Part shown: piece by piece, positions 1,316 to 7,191 of the stretch
How positions within the stretch are numbered: position 1 is the stretch's first letter
Layout: the number at the start of each line of letters is the position of its first letter
DNA from: an uncultured Flavobacteriaceae bacterium
GTDB lineage: Bacteria; Bacteroidota; Bacteroidia; Flavobacteriales; Flavobacteriaceae
Assembly (NCBI GenBank): GCA_963741775.1
Contig: CAVUJH010000015.1
Span: forward strand, 18,742-82,741
DNA: 64,000 nt
Reading direction: 5' to 3'
Notes under the pieces: generated by a model
The model's database searches: none
Seen by the model: the letters and a program-made list of their open reading frames with translations, nothing else
What the model was told of the DNA's origin: nothing
Position numbers and translations under genes: made by a program

Positions 1316-1812
1316 AAGAAAATATCCTGATCCTGAACAAAAAGGAGATCAACCACAAGATAAAACGCATTGCTTACCAGATCTACGAAAGCAATGTTTC
1401 GGAAAGCGAAATAGTTTTAGCCGGAATAGCCGCTAATGGTTTTGACCTTGCTAAAAGGCTTCAGAAGGAACTGCAGCAGATCTCACCACTTCAGATCATT
1501 CTTTGCGAGGTAAAGGTCAATAAGAAAAATCCGTTGGAAAAGGTAGTGACCTCACTTCAACCAGAAGAATACCAGAATAAATCGCTTGTATTGATCGATG
1601 ATGTACTCAATTCAGGAACCACCCTCATCTATGGCGTCAGGCATTTTCTGGAGGTGCCCCTGAAACAATTCCAGACGGCTGTACTGGTCGATAGAAATCA
1701 CAAAAAGTATCCCGTAAAAGCCGATTTTAAGGGAATTTCTCTTTCTACTTCTCTAAATGAAACCGTACAGGTAAGTTTGAAAAAGAACCAGGAAAAAGCC
1801 GAACTCTTATAG
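1312..1812 (+). CDS. PyrR-like phosphoribosyltransferase family protein
   Basis: KIKRIAYQIYE, PRPP motif VLIDDVLNSGTT, AVLVDR.H...P..ADF.G. Confidence 0.85.
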   Translation: MKENILILNKKEINHKIKRIAYQIYESNVSESEIVLAGIAANGFDLAKRLQKELQQISPLQIILCEVKVNKKNPLEKVVTSLQPEEYQNKSLVLIDDVLNSGTTLIYGVRHFLEVPLKQFQTAVLVDRNHKKYPVKADFKGISLSTSLNETVQVSLKKNQEKAELL

Positions 1813-2319
1813 TTTCTCCTCTATTTCCCTAACTATTTCCTCAGGCTTCTTCTTATCGACCTTTACGATAATATCAGATTGGTTGTAATAGAAGGCTCTC
1901 TCAAAAAGATGCTTTCTTACGAATTCCTCCAGCAGTTCCCTCGTCTCAAGATGACTAATTACCGGGCGGTATAGTTTCTCCGGAAACAACCTCTCGGTTA
2001 GTTCCTGTACCGAAGCTTTTAAATAAATTGTTTTGCCGGAGTTCTTTATCTCCTCGAAATTATCGCCGTAGCAAGGCGTTCCTCCTCCCAAAGAAACTAC
2101 CAGGTCTGCAGTTTCTTCCAGCACATCCATTAATATTTTATTTTCAAGCTTGCGAAAATAAAGCTCTCCTTTTTCATTAAATATATCATCAATACGCACC
2201 CCTTCTATCACCTCGATCTGCTCATCAAGATCTACATAACTGTATTTCAGGCTTTCTGCTAATTTCTTTCCGATCACAGATTTTCCCGATCCCATATAGC
2301 CTGTTAAAAATATTTTCAT
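1807..2319 (-). CDS. aroK: Shikimate kinase
   Basis: GYMGSGKS P-loop, DLD, GELYFRKLE, SLGGG; start MKIFL at 2319. Confidence 0.93.
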   Translation of the reverse strand: MKIFLTGYMGSGKSVIGKKLAESLKYSYVDLDEQIEVIEGVRIDDIFNEKGELYFRKLENKILMDVLEETADLVVSLGGGTPCYGDNFEEIKNSGKTIYLKASVQELTERLFPEKLYRPVISHLETRELLEEFVRKHLFERAFYYNQSDIIVKVDKKKPEEIVREIEEKL

Positions 2320-2401
2320 AGATAAACTTCTAGTTTTTAAATGAATTGAAAACAATTACAAATTTATATGAATTTAGGCTTGAAAAATAAATTAATGATC
2401 T

Positions 2402-2409
2402 TATATTTG
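2402..2409 (+). promoter_or_regulatory. Bacteroidota sigma70 -7 element of the tRNA cluster
   Basis: TATATTTG matches TAnnTTTG, with TTG about 20 nt upstream. Confidence 0.65.
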
Positions 2410-2443
2410 CACCCGCATTCGCAAAAAAGTTGATTGCTTTCTT

Positions 2444-2516
2444 GATCTGGTAGCTCAGTTGGTAGAGCATCTCCCTTTTAAGGAGAGGGTCCTGGGTTCG
2501 AGCCCCAGCCAGATCA
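2444..2516 (+). tRNA. tRNA-Lys(TTT)
   Basis: Cloverleaf: GATCTGG/CCAGATC acceptor stem, TCTCC-CTTTTAA-GGAGA anticodon arm, GGTTCGAGCC T-arm. Confidence 0.97.
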
Positions 2517-2940
2517 CTTTTTAAGTTCTGATCGAAATGGCGAGAAGCCTGTCTCGAGCGAAGCCGAAAGGCGGAGTCGAGAGAAGCCCCAGCCAGATCA
2601 CTTTTTTAAGTTCTTTTCTTGATTCGGTTGTAGTTTTTTGTTTGATCCCATTCAAAAATCTTCCTGAATCATTTCTAAAATATTGAAATTATTACCCGAT
2701 CTGGTAGCTCAGTTGGTAGAGCATCTCCCTTTTAAGGAGAGGGTCCTGGGTTCGAGCCCCAGCCAGATCACTTTTTTAAGTTCAGATTGAAATGGCGAGA
2801 AGCCTGTCTCGAGCGAAGCCGAAAGGCGGAGTCGAGAGAAGCCCCAGCCAGATCACTTTTTTAAGTGAAAATCTCGTTGGGCGAGAAGTATATCCCGAGC
2901 TAAGTCGAGAGAAGCCCCAGCCAGATCACTTTTTAAGTTC
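2501..2940 (+). repeat. Five copies of the tRNA-Lys 3' end (AGCCCCAGCCAGATCACTTTTT(T)AAGT) with intervening hairpin elements
   Basis: Copies start at 2501, 2585, 2755, 2840 and 2913; two belong to the intact tRNAs. Confidence 0.92.
2698..2770 (+). tRNA. tRNA-Lys(TTT), second identical copy
   Basis: Identical to 2444-2516. Confidence 0.97.
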
Positions 2941-3005
2941 AGACTTCTGTTAAAATTGTATTTGAAACAGCCCATTGGAAATTCAATTTCTAATCGTGCT
3001 TTTTT

Positions 3006-3089
3006 GCCCAGGTGCTGGAATTGGTAGACAGGCATGGTTGAGGGCCATGTGTCCATTAGGGCGTGCGGGTTCAAGTCCCGCTCTGGGCA
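3006..3089 (+). tRNA. tRNA-Leu(GAG)
   Basis: GCCCAGG/TCTGGGC acceptor stem, CATGG-TTGAGGG-CCATG anticodon arm, long variable arm, GGTTCAAGTCC. Confidence 0.96.
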
Positions 3090-3106
3090 CTTCCTAATTT
3101 TTCTTT

Positions 3107-3367
3107 ATGTACTTTGTATATGCCATTAAAAGCCAATTGAAAGATTGGATCTATATTGGCATGACCGATAACATTGAAAAGAGGATAAAGCAGCACAATC
3201 TCAGCCATAACAGAAGCACTAAAGCGTACAAACCTTTCCAACTCCTTTTTCAGGAAAGCTTCCCCACAAGAACAGAAGCCAGGAACCGCGAGAAATTTCT
3301 AAAATCCACCTCGGGAAAAAGATGGATCAGAAGCAATTTCAAAGATAGTGCGGGCCTGTCTGACTGA
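3107..3367 (+). CDS. Stand-alone GIY-YIG nuclease (UPF0213/SLX1-like)
   Basis: YFVYAI...YIGMT.N...R..QHN...STK...P..L..QE....R.EA..RE..LK: both motifs plus the catalytic Arg and Glu. Confidence 0.92.
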   Translation: MYFVYAIKSQLKDWIYIGMTDNIEKRIKQHNLSHNRSTKAYKPFQLLFQESFPTRTEARNREKFLKSTSGKRWIRSNFKDSAGLSD

Positions 3368-3427
3368 CTATCGTCAGAGAGCCAGGTAGATTCAAGTCCG
3401 GCTCTGGGCACTTCCTAATTTTTCTTT

Positions 3428-3688
3428 ATGTACTTTGTATATGCCATTAAAAGCTAATTGAAAGATTGGATCTATATTGGCATGACCGATAACATCGAAA
3501 GAAGGCTCAGACAACATAATTTCGGCCATAACAGAAGCACTAAAGCTTACCGTCCTTTTCAACTCCTTTTTCAGGAAAGCTTCCCCACAAGAACAGAAGC
3601 CAGGAACCGCGAGAAATTTCTGAAATCCACCTCGGGAAAAAGATAGATCAGAAGCAATTTCAAAGATAGTGCGGGCCTGTCTAACTGA
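3428..3688 (+). pseudogene. Second GIY-YIG copy with two nonsense codons
   Basis: Colinear with 3107-3367; CAA>TAA at 3455, TGG>TAG at 3644. Confidence 0.88.
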
Positions 3689-3981
3689 CTATCGTCAGAG
3701 AGCCAGGTAGATTCAAGTCCCGCTCTGGGCACTTCCTAATTTCCTCCTTCTTAATTTTATAATTTCTTTTCAGGATAATCAATCTGAGTAAAGAGTTTTT
3801 CTTTTTATATACTTTCTAATCTCTTCGGTATTACTAAAATCAACAGCGTCATCAGGACCTTTCCTATTTGCCTTTTCGCAGTTTGTTTAACCTTTTAACT
3901 ACCAAATTAAACATTTTAACACTTTAGATAATAGTTGTGATAACTTTATTATTTAGATTTGTTTAACCTGTTTTAAGAACT

Positions 3982-4878
3982 ATGGAATACATAAAACAAA
4001 ATTTCAGTATTAAAGACCTTGAAAATCTTAGTGGTATCAAGGCGCACACCATTCGCATCTGGGAAAAACGATATAATGTACTTTCTCCCGAACGAACCTC
4101 AACAAATATCAGAACCTACGACAACTCCGACCTTCAGAAGATCCTGAACATTTCTTTTCTGAATGAGAACGGATACAAGATTTCGAGGATCTCAAAACTT
4201 GATGAAGAGGAGATCAACAAAATGGTACGTAGCATCACTACTTCCTCAAGCCACCAGAACAGGGCCCTCAACAATCTGAAAATAGCGATGCTTGACTTTA
4301 ATGAAGATCTCTTTCAGAAGACCTATAAAGAACTGAGCGCTGCCCGATCTTTTCGGGAGATATTTCACGAGGTATTCCTGCCATTCCTTGAACAAATAGG
4401 CCTGCTCTGGCAAACAGATACCATTAAACCTATTCATGAGCATTTTATAGTAGACCTCATAAAACAAAAAGTTTACCTCAACCTGGCCCAGGCCAAAGAG
4501 GAGAAAAAACCTGAGGGCGAAGAACTATACGTGCTGTTTCTTCCCCAAAATGAAATTCATGATATAGGAATCCTTTACCTGTACTATGAGCTTCTTTACC
4601 ATAACAAGAACACCATGTATCTTGGGCCGAGTCTCCCCTTGAGTGATCTGCATTACCTCATAAGGATACACGATGATGTCAAGTTTATTTCCTACTTTAG
4701 TATTGCCCCTGTCGAAGTCGAAGACTTTATTGCCGAATTCCAGAGAGAACTATGCCAGGAAAAGCCCCGTCCTTTGCTTCTTTTCGGAAGAAGAACCCAA
4801 AATATAGATGCCTCTAATCTTCCCCAGAATGTAACGGTGTACAAAACCATCCCTGCTTTCATTCAAACTCTGATATAG
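3982..4878 (+). CDS. MerR-family cobalamin-binding regulator (CarH/LitR type)
   Basis: MerR HTH (TIRIWEKRY), W-x9-EH (WQTDTIKPIHEH) and ExHxxG (EIHDIG); directly upstream of crt genes. Confidence 0.85.
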   Translation: MEYIKQNFSIKDLENLSGIKAHTIRIWEKRYNVLSPERTSTNIRTYDNSDLQKILNISFLNENGYKISRISKLDEEEINKMVRSITTSSSHQNRALNNLKIAMLDFNEDLFQKTYKELSAARSFREIFHEVFLPFLEQIGLLWQTDTIKPIHEHFIVDLIKQKVYLNLAQAKEEKKPEGEELYVLFLPQNEIHDIGILYLYYELLYHNKNTMYLGPSLPLSDLHYLIRIHDDVKFISYFSIAPVEVEDFIAEFQRELCQEKPRPLLLFGRRTQNIDASNLPQNVTVYKTIPAFIQTLI

Positions 4879-4884
4879 CCCAAT

Positions 4885-6347
4885 ATGAGCAAAAGAATTT
4901 CCATAATAGGATCAGGCTTTTCTTCCCTGGCTGCCGCCTGCTATCTGGCTAAAGACGGGAACGAGGTTCATATCTATGAGAAGAATTCCACTGTAGGTGG
5001 CAGGGCCCGTCAATTAAAGCGGGACGGTTTCACTTTCGACATTGGCCCTACCTGGTACTGGATGCCCGATGTCTTTGAGCGCTTCTTTGCGGACTTCGGA
5101 AAAACTCCCGCCGATTACTATGAGCTTATGAAACTTGATCCCGCCTACCAGGTATATTTTGAAGGCGGTCACCGAATTACTATTGGCGACAGCCTTGAGA
5201 AAATATACGCGGCCTTTGAAAAAGAAGAAAAAGGAAGTGCCACGAAATTACAGAAATTCATCCGGAAGGCACAGCAGAACTACGATATAGCGATCAAAGA
5301 CCTGGTTTACCGCCCGGGCGTTTCGCCTCTCGAACTGGTAACGCCTACCACTGCAACTAAAATTGGTCAGTTCTTTAGCACTATTTCTAAAGAGGTGAAG
5401 AAGGAATTTACGAATCCCAGGCTTATTCAGATTCTGGAATTCCCGGTGCTTTTTCTCGGTGCAAAACCCGGGGATACTCCTGCCTTCTACAGCTTCATGA
5501 ACTACGCCGATTTTGGGTTGGGAACCTGGCATCCGAAAGGTGGAATGTACCAGGTGATCTTAGCCATTAAAGAGCTTGCTCTTTCGCTGGGAGTTCACAT
5601 CCACACCAATGCTCCTGTGAAGAGCATACAAGTAGAGAATAACCAGGCGCGGGGAATTAGCCTTAACGGCAAAGTTATCCCTTCAGACCTCGTGCTAAGC
5701 GGCGCCGATTATCATCATACTGAAAGCCTGTTGCCAGAAATCAACCGACAATATTCGGAAGGCTACTGGAAGAAGAAAACCTTTGCTCCCTCTTCCCTGC
5801 TCTTCTATGTTGGTTTTGACCGAAAACTGCAGAATGTCGCGCATCATACGCTGTTTTTCGATACCGATTTTGGCATCCACGCCGAAGCTATTTACGACGA
5901 TCCACGCTGGCCCGAAGAGCCCTTGTTCTACGCCAGTTTTCCTTCGGTTACAGATAATTCAGCTGCGCCCGAAGGCAAAGAGGCAGGAATATTTCTTATC
6001 CCTTTGGCTCCCGATCTTGAAGATACTCCGGAATTACGGGAAAAATATTTCAGCAAGATCATTCAGCGCTTTGAAAAACTTACCGGCCAGGACGTTCAAA
6101 AAGATATCCTGTTCAGAGAATCTTTCTGTGTGAACGATTTCAAAAAGGAATACAATTCCTATAAAGGAAATGCTTACGGGCTCGCAAATACGTTGCTCCA
6201 AACTGCCTTTCTGCGGCCAAAACTAAAAAGCAAAAAAGTAGAGCAACTGTATTTTACCGGGCAATTGACTGTGCCGGGACCAGGGGTTCCCCAAGTCTTA
6301 TTTCCGGAAAGCTGGCAGCAGAACTTATCCGAAAATCAAAAAATTAA
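4885..6347 (+). CDS. crtI: Phytoene desaturase; apparent -1 frameshift at the C4 run 6289-6292 makes it read into crtB
   Basis: GxGxxS FAD motif, FDIGPTWYWMP; adding one C restores the conserved end GPGVPPSLISGKLAA with TAA at 6345-6347. Confidence 0.9.
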
Positions 6348-6351
6348 TGCT

Positions 6352-7191
6352 ATGAAATCTATTTTTGACGTTGTAGCCAGGGCTTGCAGCAAAACAGTGA
6401 CTAACTCCTATAGCACCTCCTTTTCCTCTGCTACCCGCATGCTTGCCCCCTCCATAAGGCAGGATATCTACAATATTTACGGATTTGTGCGTTTCGCTGA
6501 TGAGATCGTTGATTCTTTTCAGGATTACGACCAGGAGAAGCTCTTCAACATGTTTGAAAAAGATATGTATTCGGCCATAGCGAATAAAATCAGTCTGAAC
6601 CCGATCCTGAACGCTTTCCAGGAAACAGTGCACAAATATGATATTCCGTCCGAATTATACGAGGCTTTTATGAAAAGCATGCGTCTAGACCTTCACAAAT
6701 CTGCCTATCTCACAATGGAAGAATATCGTGAGTATATCTACGGAAGCGCCGATGTGGTGGGGCTAATGTGCCTGAAGGTTTTCGTAAAAGGGAACAGCGA
6801 AAAATATGAAAACCTAAAAGAGTCTGCCATGCGGCTGGGCTCGGCCTTTCAAAAGGTAAACTTTCTGCGTGACCTCAAGATGGATTATGAACATCTTAGC
6901 CGAAGCTACTTCCCCAACACCAATCTCGCGGAACTCGACGAAGCAAGCAAGAAGCAGATAATCGATGAAATTGAGGCCGACTTCCACGAAGGTTTTAAAG
7001 GGATCTCCCAACTTCCTGTCGAAGCAAAATTCGGCGTTTATACCGCTTATGTGTATTATTTAAAATTATTGCATAAATTGAAGAAAATTCCTTCCCTGGA
7101 GATCAGGAAAAGAAGGATCAGGGTTTCGGACTATCAAAAGGCGGGACTTCTCGCAAAGTCTTATCTTTCGTACCGGCTTAACCTCATTTAG
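6352..7191 (+). CDS. crtB: Phytoene synthase
   Basis: YSTSF, IYGFVRFADEIVD, FQKVNFLRD; has its own ATG at 6352. Confidence 0.93.
   Translation: MKSIFDVVARACSKTVTNSYSTSFSSATRMLAPSIRQDIYNIYGFVRFADEIVDSFQDYDQEKLFNMFEKDMYSAIANKISLNPILNAFQETVHKYDIPSELYEAFMKSMRLDLHKSAYLTMEEYREYIYGSADVVGLMCLKVFVKGNSEKYENLKESAMRLGSAFQKVNFLRDLKMDYEHLSRSYFPNTNLAELDEASKKQIIDEIEADFHEGFKGISQLPVEAKFGVYTAYVYYLKLLHKLKKIPSLEIRKRRIRVSDYQKAGLLAKSYLSYRLNLI

Follow-up and report, generated by a model that had tools for sequence, protein, structure and literature searches.

tRNA genes are among the most conserved of sequences and are the classic landing sites of large integrase-driven islands. In the stretch of 64,000 nucleotides analysed here (the window), which belongs to a 70%-complete Salegentibacter MAG in 25 contigs (G000), a tRNA-Leu(GAG) gene is trailed by two units of 321 bp, in which a nuclease coding region is combined with a further piece of the same tRNA. 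What are these units, and how did they come to occupy a tRNA gene? A first-pass annotation of the sequence had proposed a minimal mobile system, made of a nuclease and a hairpin, that targets tRNA 3' ends and amplifies in tandem. The parts of the array are listed below, with the evidence for each in brackets.

3006..3090, + strand: tRNA-Leu(GAG), intact (ARAGORN; Rfam tRNA 47.5 bits)
3070..3390, + strand: unit 1, 321 bp (TRF period 321; repeat search)
3107..3367, + strand: GIY-YIG nuclease ORF of unit 1, 86 aa (Pfam PF01541; alignment; AlphaFold2)
3348..3354, + strand: GTGCGGG, duplicate of tRNA positions 58-64, which form the 5' strand of the T-stem (sequence; flank-to-tRNA alignment)
3355..3390, + strand: 36-nt insert of unit 1 at the T-stem/T-loop junction (sequence; same insert type in relatives)
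3391..3410, + strand: tRNA 3' end from T-loop to discriminator, second copy, which opens unit 2 (repeat search, 97%)
3391..3711, + strand: unit 2, 321 bp, 93% identical to unit 1 (TRF; repeat search)
3428..3688, + strand: GIY-YIG pseudogene of unit 2 (whole-genome protein search, '1 TAG, 1 TAA'; ORF list; sequence)
3676..3711, + strand: hairpin insert of unit 2, 36 nt (sequence; fold z -1.9)
3712..3742, + strand: third and terminal copy of the tRNA 3' end with 11 nt of trailer, end of the array (repeat search, 100%)

TRF reported an array of period 321 from 3070 to 3742 (2.1 copies, 93% matches, 0 indels), and a repeat search agreed, placing the units at 3070-3369 and 3391-3690. Together with ARAGORN, these results bear out the annotated arrangement of 321-bp tandem units directly behind the tRNA. 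The first repeat copy is the final 21 nt of tRNA-Leu(GAG) itself (3070-3090), from which unit 1 continues through a 17-nt trailer, an intact GIY-YIG ORF, a 7-nt piece of T-stem and the 36-nt hairpin insert. GTGCGGG and TTCAAGTCC are adjacent in the T-arm of the real tRNA and are parted by the 36-nt insert in each unit; the earlier description of a T-arm copy split at the unit end was thus accurate, as was its placing of the nuclease stop codon (TGA, 3365-3367) inside the hairpin. GTGCGGG had been placed after the gene, but it lies inside the ORF, at codons 81-83. The second copy of the tRNA 3' end carries one mismatch (CCGGC for CCCGC). An 86-codon GIY-YIG gene had been assigned to each unit, which holds for unit 1 but not for unit 2, where in-frame stops at codon 10 (TAA, 3455-3457) and codon 73 (TAG, 3644-3646) make the ORF a pseudogene.

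The host genome being an incomplete MAG in many contigs, the tandem might be a collapsed or mis-joined repeat, and in an independent assembly from Salegentibacter (G201), which has a truncated cassette at the same locus, the contig break falls exactly within that cassette. Against this, ~22 positions distinguish the two units, as a mosaic concentrated in the middle of the ORF, and complete single-contig genomes (e.g. G138 and G114) also contain tandem arrays of this kind. The unit differences and the presence of the cassette at the locus in G201 make it unlikely that the tandem is an assembly artefact. The first-pass annotation had allowed for this possibility; we rejected it and assign it next to no probability.

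The unit 1 protein belongs to the GIY-YIG superfamily by profile match, catalytic constellation and fold. It matched Pfam PF01541 with an E-value of 1.1e-17 (64.5 bits, cut-off 22.6); an NCBIfam search gave sub-threshold matches only; the domain covers residues 1-71 of the 86 aa, and a second domain is absent. Y5, Y16, G18, R26, H30 and E62, all present in this protein, were invariant across 32 diverse sequences, which implies selection on the enzyme. An AlphaFold2 model (pLDDT 88.6) found only GIY-YIG domains as its top PDB matches, with UPF0213 and Slx1 as the nearest folds, and the closest database proteins come from a Salegentibacter MAG (86%) and Zunongwangia sp. H14 (76%). The tRNA-proximal unit of the array is probably still functional.

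The genes around the array are housekeeping and carotenoid genes. As had been stated in the first-pass annotation, no integrase, transposase or reverse transcriptase was found nearby (Pfam, ORFs of at least 120 aa, 1-13 kb), nor any recombinase within 8 kb, and the minimal make-up that it described, a single-domain nuclease gene with a hairpin and a tRNA fragment, was upheld. Rfam (E up to 1) returned three tRNAs and nothing else for the region 1500-5000, and no promoter- or terminator-like site was found inside the units. Since the 17-nt spacer has neither room nor signal for a promoter, the ORF would be read through from the promoter of the tRNA.

In order to see this locus in context, we compared it with 72 homologous loci, at 66 of which a same-strand tRNA abuts the ORF (within ~120 nt). 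The linkage held for 27 of the 29 Flavobacteriaceae loci and for 39 of the 43 from other families and phyla, against a chance expectation of ~0.2% by our own rough estimate, so that the enrichment of such nucleases beside tRNAs suggested by the single locus was confirmed. Where no tRNA adjoined the ORF, the locus was an inner copy of an array or lay at a contig end, or two hairpins had broken the tRNA. The same layout was observed beside tRNA genes in many bacterial phyla; Bacteroidota, Ignavibacteriota, CPR bacteria and other groups commonly have hairpin-split tRNA fragments and tiny 'GIY-YIG family proteins' next to tRNAs. On the far side of the ORF lies a partial copy of the neighbouring tRNA, cleanly cut at a stem-loop junction by a conserved palindrome or hairpin whose flanks are adjacent tRNA positions (e.g. 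1-22 / hairpin / 23-35). The insertion points were 9/10, the D-loop, 22/23, the anticodon loop and the T-loop. Most relatives have the cassette at the 5' side of the tRNA with a hairpin-split 5' fragment, and in this upstream layout the ORF stop codon is often inside the tRNA. Thus, of the interpretation first given to the array, the unit of nuclease, hairpin and tRNA fragment, the tRNA linkage and the recurrence of arrays have stood, but the targeting of 3' ends specifically has not.

Both the type of tRNA and the type of hairpin follow the protein clades. A clade of 34 proteins (99% SH-aLRT) includes 23 tRNA-Leu neighbours, the tRNA label changes 16 times on the tree compared with 36.2 times when shuffled, and hairpin type changes only 3 times over 54 typed rows. 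The tree mixes phyla, but with AU tests on the 80-column tree, monophyly could not be rejected for either the Bacteroidota (p 0.53) or the Flavobacteriaceae rows (p 0.18). The tree is therefore no proof of horizontal transfer, and cross-phylum transfer was dropped as evidence.

Integrase-driven islands are classically recognised by duplicated tRNA 3' ends, and those at this locus could be attL/attR remnants of an island or prophage at tRNA-Leu, with the GIY-YIG gene as left-over cargo. A search of 2.9 million viral contigs (IMG/VR) gave only 3 homologues, all at or near contig ends, as would be expected of provirus host flanks. However, no recombinase was found within 8 kb, the entire unit is 321 bp, the architecture recurs, integrase-free, at > 60 loci (for related loci, the small GIY-YIG gene is all that the ORF lists contain), and the hairpin occupies varied positions in the tRNA copy, 5' fragments included, unlike att sites. 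We rejected this explanation on these grounds and regard it as very improbable. The cassette does resemble integrase islands, and also mitochondrial mobile ORFs that bring along a duplicate of a gene end, in that its own copy of the displaced segment keeps the target working, with a partial duplicate left at the far end; it differs from them in having no integrase, in a size of only 0.3 kb, and in a displaced copy that bears a conserved hairpin and comes in 5' and 3' versions.

The hairpin stem TCTGAC/GTCAGA, as first drawn, is found in this genome alone, whereas the relatives conserve TCTRACTGRC/GCCAGGTAGA (here 3359-3368 and 3381-3390), present in unit 1 as TCTGACTGAC and GCCAGGTAGA. The left arm of the unit 2 insert, TCTAACTGAC, is nearer the consensus of the relatives than that of unit 1. 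An insert of 36 nt is present in each unit, as had been claimed, but it folds weakly, barely better than shuffled sequence: folding as ssDNA gave z -1.2 for unit 1 and -1.9 for unit 2, with 23/200 and 11/200 shuffles folding equally well, compared with z -3.5 and -4.8 (0/200 shuffles in both cases) for the homologous hairpins of loci L070 and L080. L070, L080 and L081 have this insert type at the corresponding tRNA position, and the hairpin type of the array is also shared by L077. Hairpins nested in hairpins occur as well.

We then turned to the orthologous site, between tRNA-Leu(GAG) and MerR. G000, G201 and Autumnicola tepida carry the cassette there, and MAG S141_30 has a remnant at the site; in a congener (G202) and in 10 other genera the spacer is empty, 64-289 nt long and without a remnant. 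The cassette must have been inserted, since the orthologous site is empty in these genomes, and the locus is neither invariant nor simply vertical in its inheritance. This pattern speaks of insertion at some time and not of current mobility, because precise deletion between the 31-bp direct repeats could also empty sites. Co-conversion of the tRNA T-loop (TTCAAGT), considered as a mark of import, was uninformative, as the empty sites in other genera share this T-loop. With its distal unit dead and both of its hairpins eroded, the array looks like an old insertion in decay. In arrays with a broken copy, the broken copy was tRNA-distal in 6/6 cases. The tandem amplification that had been attributed to the element is real in so far as arrays recur at many loci, but their growth is better explained by unequal crossover, by which arrays probably grow: at locus L149, a copy that already bore a stop codon was itself duplicated.

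Such observations raise the question of whether the cassette was ever more than a passive relic. Each could be an ancient one-off insertion or local duplication at its tRNA, since then inherited vertically, kept similar by gene conversion with the adjacent tRNA and lost repeatedly between direct repeats, with no present mobility and no involvement of the nuclease. The AU tests, which leave phylum and family monophyly unrejected, the duplication of a dead copy in L149 and the formation of arrays by ORF-less cassettes (described below) all agree with this, as does the identity of most split tRNA copies to the adjoining tRNA. On the other hand, a relic does not account for catalytic residues that are invariant over such diverse sequences, nor for a hairpin conserved across phyla in its sequence, beyond its structure, that changes together with the protein clade. 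In L010 and L092, moreover, paired changes that keep the stems intact set the split copy apart from the tRNA next to it, so that the split copy represents a different functional tRNA allele, and a single protein clade holds cassettes that lie 5' of the tRNA as well as cassettes that lie 3' of it. We consider a purely passive origin decidedly unlikely.

The nuclease might instead serve its host. It could be a domesticated, Ssn-like enzyme that uses the tRNA promoter for expression only and acts elsewhere, for example by restricting incoming ssDNA or phage at dispersed hairpins, while the split tRNA fragment is a signal for RNA processing or stability, or a regulatory site. In support of such a role, the genome has canonical CCTGCCTGC.GCAGGCAGG palindromes at 6 sites outside tRNAs, where ~0.02 would be expected (our own estimate), an ORF stop inside the tRNA in the upstream layout couples translation to tRNA processing, and SsnA modulates natural transformation in Neisseria (PMC11893778). 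A mobile vector was also not found: there were no homologues in 50,697 phage records or in 72,556 plasmid records, and IMG/VR added only the contig-end matches already mentioned. A benefit to the host sits poorly, however, with the patchy occurrence of the cassette (99 of 201 family genomes), with the in-frame stops that are frequent among the matches, with one dead copy in the array and a truncated one in G201, and with an empty site in a congener; a regulatory role also leaves the constant presence of a partial tRNA copy unexplained. On balance, we hold this explanation to be unlikely.

The closest known system is that of the Ssn proteins (SsnA, cd10448), site-specific nucleases of ssDNA that consist of a single GIY-YIG domain and have cognate hairpin repeats, NTS/SRM; their layout was likened to an insertion sequence by the authors themselves, whose paper mentions neither tRNA nor Bacteroidota (PMC11893778). 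A defining trait of the family is that ssDNA is cut at a specific site beside the hairpin, whereas dsDNA and RNA are left uncut. Both are single GIY-YIG domains of ~90 aa (86 aa in the cassette) without a DNA-binding extension, and the essential SsnA residues Y6, Y17 and E64 (PMC11893778) match by position the cassette invariants Y5, Y16 and E62. In both, the gene is physically tied to a hairpin conserved in sequence as well as structure, the type of which changes along with the protein lineage. They differ in that the cassette hairpin is of the CCTGCCTGCC type or TCTRACTGRC/GCCAGGTAGA and not CGTCATT..., is one-sided and placed inside a partial tRNA copy, where SRM/NTS repeats often flank both sides, and numbers few copies per genome as against hundreds; the cassette gene, unlike those of Ssn, sits in a tRNA transcription unit. 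The host genome also has an Ssn-type gene of canonical appearance (G000:C21, L112), flanked by CGTCATTGCGAG inverted repeats, to whose product the cassette protein is 29% identical (E 0.003). A full-text literature search, the exact palindrome included, returned no description of tRNA-linked GIY-YIG cassettes.

Other systems share single traits. SegB of phage T4 is reportedly a free-standing GIY-YIG homing endonuclease in a tRNA gene cluster, and the Seg enzymes are proteins of ~200-250 aa with a C-terminal DNA-binding domain. The likeness lies in an intron-less GIY-YIG gene among tRNA genes and in a conserved site with presence/absence polymorphism, as in a cycle of invasion, decay and loss, but the cassette protein is a bare catalytic domain with no C-terminal DNA-binding domain, Seg genes lie between genes without a hairpin or duplicated target piece, and the cassette has no homologues in the phage records searched. 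REP/BIME-RAYT and IS200/IS605 likewise pair a small nuclease gene with hairpin repeats recognised as ssDNA and have gene-less hairpin copies elsewhere in the genome and nested hairpins. Their catalytic fold is HUH, whereas the sole ORF in the cassette unit encodes a GIY-YIG domain, is not bracketed by a subterminal hairpin pair and inserts in a tRNA gene with duplication of the displaced end. Among solved structures, the nearest by sequence was 1zg2 (UPF0213 BH0048, E 1.4e-4), and Slx1 superposed with an rmsd of ~2 Å over ~70 residues, at only 24-30% sequence identity of the cassette protein to Slx1 and UPF0213. We know of no link of UPF0213 proteins to tRNA genes or hairpins. Slx1, which acts with Slx4 and carries a RING/PHD domain that the cassette protein lacks, cuts branched DNA according to the titles of PDB entries 6seh and 7cq4, an activity that would fit hairpin insertions at stem-loop junctions.

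A second kind of cassette lies just upstream of the array:

2518..2940, + strand: ORF-less cassettes of 73-85 bp after both tRNA-Lys genes (sequence; repeat search)

In each of them, the tRNA-Lys 3' end is repeated behind a hairpin (CGAGAAG-YYTRTCYYGAGC...GTCGARRGRAG); these cassettes are related to the GIY-YIG cassette but distinct from it. The type follows tRNAs in 22 of 121 family genomes and also forms arrays, and a GIY-YIG gene was never found within 1.5 kb of it in the 121 genomes searched. As ORF-less cassettes multiply beside tRNAs without a nearby nuclease gene, a nuclease in cis is unnecessary for such structures. A hammerhead-like or other ribozyme, considered for the CUGAGCG...GUCGAAGG motif of gene-less cassettes, was rejected, since the core misfits and Rfam is silent.

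Based on these findings, we consider it probable, if only just, that both units are copies of a cassette lodged in a tRNA gene, and that the family they come from, which is widespread, comprises very small insertions in tRNA transcription units that are, or once were, selfish. The cassette is a gene for a single-domain GIY-YIG nuclease of ~80-90 aa, tight against an intact tRNA on the same strand, and duplication of the displaced tRNA segment leaves one working tRNA in place. Expression of the ORF would depend on transcription running on from the tRNA promoter, and the hairpin may be the cognate DNA site of the nuclease, recognised in folded ssDNA as in the Ssn family. Nicks at or near stem-loop junctions, followed by recombinational repair, could then have copied the cassette into an empty tRNA-Leu(GAG) gene, an insertion that would date to the Salegentibacter/Autumnicola lineage, with later growth of the array by unequal crossover between the repeated tRNA ends. 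Among the points against such a selfish cassette are these: the identity of most split copies to the adjacent tRNA is what local duplication would be expected to give, the intact tRNA retains any target that the nuclease might have, and no vector was found among phage and plasmid records.

A stronger version may be put forward tentatively, as a possibility that we rate below that of selfish or formerly selfish insertions in general. Here the cassettes would be autonomous mobile elements of ~0.3 kb, whose Slx1/Ssn-like nuclease, 80-90 aa long, recognises the hairpin of its cassette in folded ssDNA and nicks tRNA stem-loop junctions, so that the cassette and a replacement tRNA segment are copied into empty alleles across phyla, with the gene-less hairpin/tRNA-end cassettes as non-autonomous partners. 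If this were true, it would amount to a mechanism of homing or transposition distinct from those of integrases, HUH transposases and classical homing endonucleases.

For genome annotation, hairpin-split tRNA fragments with tiny GIY-YIG proteins are relevant as structures that break short-read assemblies, as in G201. The cassette would extend the newly described Ssn nuclease-hairpin pairs into a defined genomic niche, and would supply compact nucleases with structure- and sequence-specific recognition of ssDNA. If a nuclease and a hairpin in 0.3 kb do occupy tRNA genes while keeping them functional, these cassettes would be among the smallest self-sufficient genetic parasites known.

Tandem Repeats Finder reported a single array in the window, lying behind the tRNA-Leu(GAG) gene predicted by ARAGORN, and a second repeat search returned identical registers for it. 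The features at the locus are as follows.

2444-2517 and 2698-2771: two tRNA-Lys(TTT) genes ahead of tRNA-Leu(GAG) (ARAGORN)
3006-3090, forward strand: tRNA-Leu(GAG) (ARAGORN)
3070-3742: tandem array, period 321, 2.1 copies, 93% matches, no indels (Tandem Repeats Finder)
3107-3367: GIY-YIG ORF of unit 1, 86 aa (Pfam GIY-YIG, E 1.1e-17)

Each 321-bp unit runs from the last 21 nt of the tRNA (TTCAAGTCCCGCTCTGGGCAC) through a 17-nt trailer, the ORF, GTGCGGG and a 36-nt insert to a second TTCAAGTCC. Since GTGCGGG and TTCAAGTCC are contiguous in the genuine tRNA-Leu T-arm, the unit end is a copy of this arm split at the T-stem/T-loop junction. The split-T-arm layout proposed in the first-pass annotation was thus confirmed by ARAGORN, Tandem Repeats Finder and the sequence itself. 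An 86-codon GIY-YIG gene in each unit had also been proposed; this holds for unit 1, whose TGA stop falls within the 36-nt insert, but unit 2 carries an in-frame TAA at codon 10 and a TAG at codon 73. The hairpin stem originally drawn, TCTGAC/GTCAGA, requires correction, as relatives conserve TCTRACTGRC paired with GCCAGGTAGA and the inserts of both units show only weak folding as single-stranded DNA (z -1.2 and -1.9). It is unlikely that the array was created during assembly, since about 22 positions, clustering mid-ORF, distinguish the two units, and an independent Salegentibacter assembly (G201) holds a cassette at the same locus. The observed array is real.

The window derives from a 2.54-Mb MAG that is 70% complete. 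The ORFs within 13 kb encode an S4-domain protein, a TPMT-like methyltransferase, a phosphoribosyltransferase, a shikimate kinase, a MerR/B12-binding regulator, a fused phytoene desaturase-synthase, a lycopene cyclase and an aconitase; as noted earlier, no integrase, transposase or reverse transcriptase is among them. Sigma-70-type promoter and terminator patterns were absent from the 321-bp units, and since a mere 17 nt separate the tRNA from the ATG, the ORF would most simply be transcribed by read-through from the tRNA promoter. Phytoene desaturase and phytoene synthase are usually separate genes; the single 768-aa ORF at 4885-7191, which joins a phytoene desaturase-like (Amino_oxidase) and a phytoene synthase (SQS_PSY) domain, could reflect a real fusion or else an error of assembly or reading frame.

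A whole-genome protein search of the Flavobacteriaceae (one genome per genus, E up to 1e-6) identified cassette homologues in 99 of 201 genomes, many of them as tandem pairs or longer arrays, with an in-frame stop in roughly one tenth of the listed matches. A tRNA directly adjoins the ORF, always on the same strand, in 27 of the 29 best loci. Scanning one genome per species yielded 43 further loci from Bacteroidota, Ignavibacteriota, Balneolota, Planctomycetota, Pseudomonadota, Omnitrophota and several CPR phyla, and 39 of these have a same-strand tRNA within about 120 nt. Loci lacking an adjoining tRNA are inner array copies, contig ends, or cases where the tRNA copy is broken by two hairpins. 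Homologues are thus enriched beside tRNAs both within the family and across phyla.

Contrary to the first-pass annotation, the family is not specific to tRNA 3' ends. The layout seen in the window (tRNA, ORF, split 3' fragment) is outnumbered by one in which a split 5' fragment is followed by the ORF and the tRNA, with the ORF stop often inside the tRNA. At L009, L013, L014, L015, L021, L027, L029 and other loci of this ORF-then-tRNA order, the stop lies 10-23 nt inside the downstream tRNA, so that RNase P processing would leave a stop-less mRNA, possibly a built-in brake on nuclease expression. In a tree of 71 proteins, a 34-member clade (99% SH-aLRT) contains both layouts and includes 23 neighbours of tRNA-Leu (anticodons GAG, CAA, CAG and TAA); of the remainder, 8 are inner copies or lie at contig ends and 3 adjoin tRNA-Arg(TCT). 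The tRNA label changes 16 times on the tree, against 36.2 times with shuffled labels; because relatives have labels in common, this pattern shows clustering and not independent events.

Across the ORF from the tRNA, the strongest GC-rich palindrome at most loci has consecutive tRNA positions on its two sides (1-22, hairpin, 23-35, for instance), and the hairpin is therefore a clean insertion into the tRNA copy. The insertion points are stem-loop junctions (9/10, the D-loop, 22/23, the anticodon loop edges and the T-loop), and hairpin and ORF usually stand 6-14 nt apart. The most frequent hairpin type is a perfect palindrome, CCTGCCTGCCGGCAGGCAGG, found beside Leu, Arg, Asn and Met tRNAs from Flavobacteriaceae through CPR bacteria, while one Flavobacteriaceae Arg clade has a different hairpin, CCCGCCCG... 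The third type, CCTG-TCTRACTGRC-loop-GCCAGGTAGA, occupies the same T-loop position in the window, in a Salinivirgaceae locus at tRNA-Leu-TAA (L070) and in three loci of Saprospiraceae and kin at tRNA-Arg-TCT (L077, L080, L081). These three types change only 3 times over 54 typed rows of the protein tree. That the hairpin keeps its sequence and not just its pairing, and that it changes along with the protein, suggests that the nuclease recognises it directly.

Nested palindromes such as CCTGCCTGCCGGCA|CCTGTCTGCCGATAGGTAGA|GGCAGG occur at L072, some 60-110 nt past each ORF, and at L078, some 90-40 nt ahead of the ORF; in these, one hairpin seems to have entered the loop of a second. The canonical palindrome CCTGCCTGC(N)GCAGGCAGG is also present at six non-tRNA sites in the window's genome outside the window, against about 0.02 expected by chance by our own estimate.

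C2:45555, canonical palindrome
C6:152163, canonical palindrome
C7:42758, canonical palindrome
C8:99773, canonical palindrome
C20:37707, canonical palindrome
C20:69948, canonical palindrome

Some of these lie within the loops of other hairpin repeats (CGTCA-CCTGAA...TTCAGG type), and others are part of a longer repeat with three copies in the genome.

The gene order tRNA-Lys, tRNA-Leu(GAG), MerR, crtI is conserved across the family. In the congener G202 and 10 other genera the tRNA-Leu-MerR spacer measures 64-289 nt and holds neither a GIY-YIG remnant nor an extra tRNA end. The site is occupied in the window's genome, in G201 and in Autumnicola tepida (72% identity), and one further MAG retains a cassette remnant; the locus is therefore variable. 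The empty sites could be the product of recombination between 31-bp repeats; parsimony favours one gain in the window's sub-lineage, then decay, plus a loss in G202. In G201 (Salegentibacter sp. MFD05654, locus L067), the closest relative, the cassette ORF is cut off after about codon 62, and the contig end falls within the cassette. Between cassette and MerR on the opposite strand, L067 also carries a 2.3-kb, 781-aa ORF (2062-4407), missing from the window and G202, which, judged by its sequence, looks like a TonB-dependent receptor.

The majority of split copies are identical to the adjacent tRNA. At L010 and L092, the differences between the split copy and the intact tRNA beside it are paired and preserve the stems (at L010, three compensatory pairs in the variable arm and otherwise identity), which implies that the split copy was once a different working allele, as would be expected if cassettes move between lineages. 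AU tests did not reject trees with Bacteroidota rows (p 0.53) or Flavobacteriaceae rows (p 0.18) held together, and the short protein tree offers no proof of horizontal transfer. No cassette homologues were found in phage and plasmid collections; IMG/VR gave three only, each at a contig end or close to one.

Arrays with two to four tandem units are found repeatedly among the loci. In all six arrays containing a broken copy (the window, L017, L079, L084, L086 and L149), this copy is the tRNA-distal one, a polarity consistent with new copies being added at the tRNA but also with selection that acts on the proximal copy alone. At L149 the two distal copies have the same stop codon in common, hence an already dead copy was duplicated, which points to array growth by unequal crossover. 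Amplification, previously ascribed to the element itself, was probably passive.

The window's genome also contains gene-less units of 64-122 bp behind tRNA-Lys (three times), Thr (twice), His, Ile and Asn, at the following positions.

Window 2518-2940, gene-less cassettes
C4:81004, gene-less cassette
C5:240164, gene-less cassette
C6:161692, gene-less cassette
C13:30395, gene-less cassette
C13:53495, gene-less cassette

They consist of a hairpin unlike that of the GIY-YIG cassette, CGAGAAG-YYTRTCYYGAGC-loop-GTCGARRGRAG, with an outer stem covarying around a tandem G-A/A-G core, followed by a tRNA 3' end copy. The motif was found in 22 of 121 family genomes (none with a reversed control), lies immediately downstream of a same-strand tRNA at 25 of 30 loci and forms arrays of up to 4 units; among the loci examined in family genomes, no GIY-YIG gene lies within 1.5 kb of it. 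The gene-less units could be non-autonomous partners or a separate phenomenon; in both cases they show that structures of this kind can spread without a nuclease in cis. At the orthologous locus of another Flavobacteriaceae genus (L053, 340-440), tRNA-Lys is followed by a degenerate gene-less copy of its 3' end (AAGCCCCAGCCACATCAC), indicating that the Lys-linked cassettes are older than the Leu-linked GIY-YIG insertion.

Thirteen residues are kept in 32 diverse members (V4, Y5, S9, Y16, G18, R26, H30, T38, P43, R59, E62, K66 and G70), and the unit 1 protein has all of them. Its AlphaFold2 model has the GIY-YIG fold (pLDDT 88.6) and, among solved structures, is most similar to UPF0213 BH0048 and to the nuclease domain of the structure-specific enzyme Slx1 (about 2 A across some 70 residues). 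Among described systems, the Ssn nuclease-hairpin pair comes nearest. SsnA, a 94-aa single-domain GIY-YIG protein, binds its cognate hairpin only as single-stranded DNA, cleaves a few nucleotides upstream of it and requires Y6, Y17 and E64 (PMC11893778), which match Y5, Y16 and E62 of the cassette protein by position. A second small GIY-YIG gene in the window's genome (97 aa, C21:110661-110954; L112, 1489-1782) has no tRNA nearby and sits between inverted copies of a CGTCATTGCGAG...GCAATCTC element. This two-sided layout is the one described for Ssn nucleases, making it a canonical-looking Ssn-type gene, and its protein is only 29% identical to the window's cassette protein. Lodging in tRNA genes with a duplicated, hairpin-split gene segment was not described in the literature we searched. 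The present analysis covered the tRNA association, the anatomy and the insertion polymorphism. In detail the original reading is wrong or unproven, with targeting of tRNA genes by the cassette's own nuclease only a candidate mechanism, but it is right in kind: this is a minimal nuclease-plus-hairpin cassette tied to tRNA genes.
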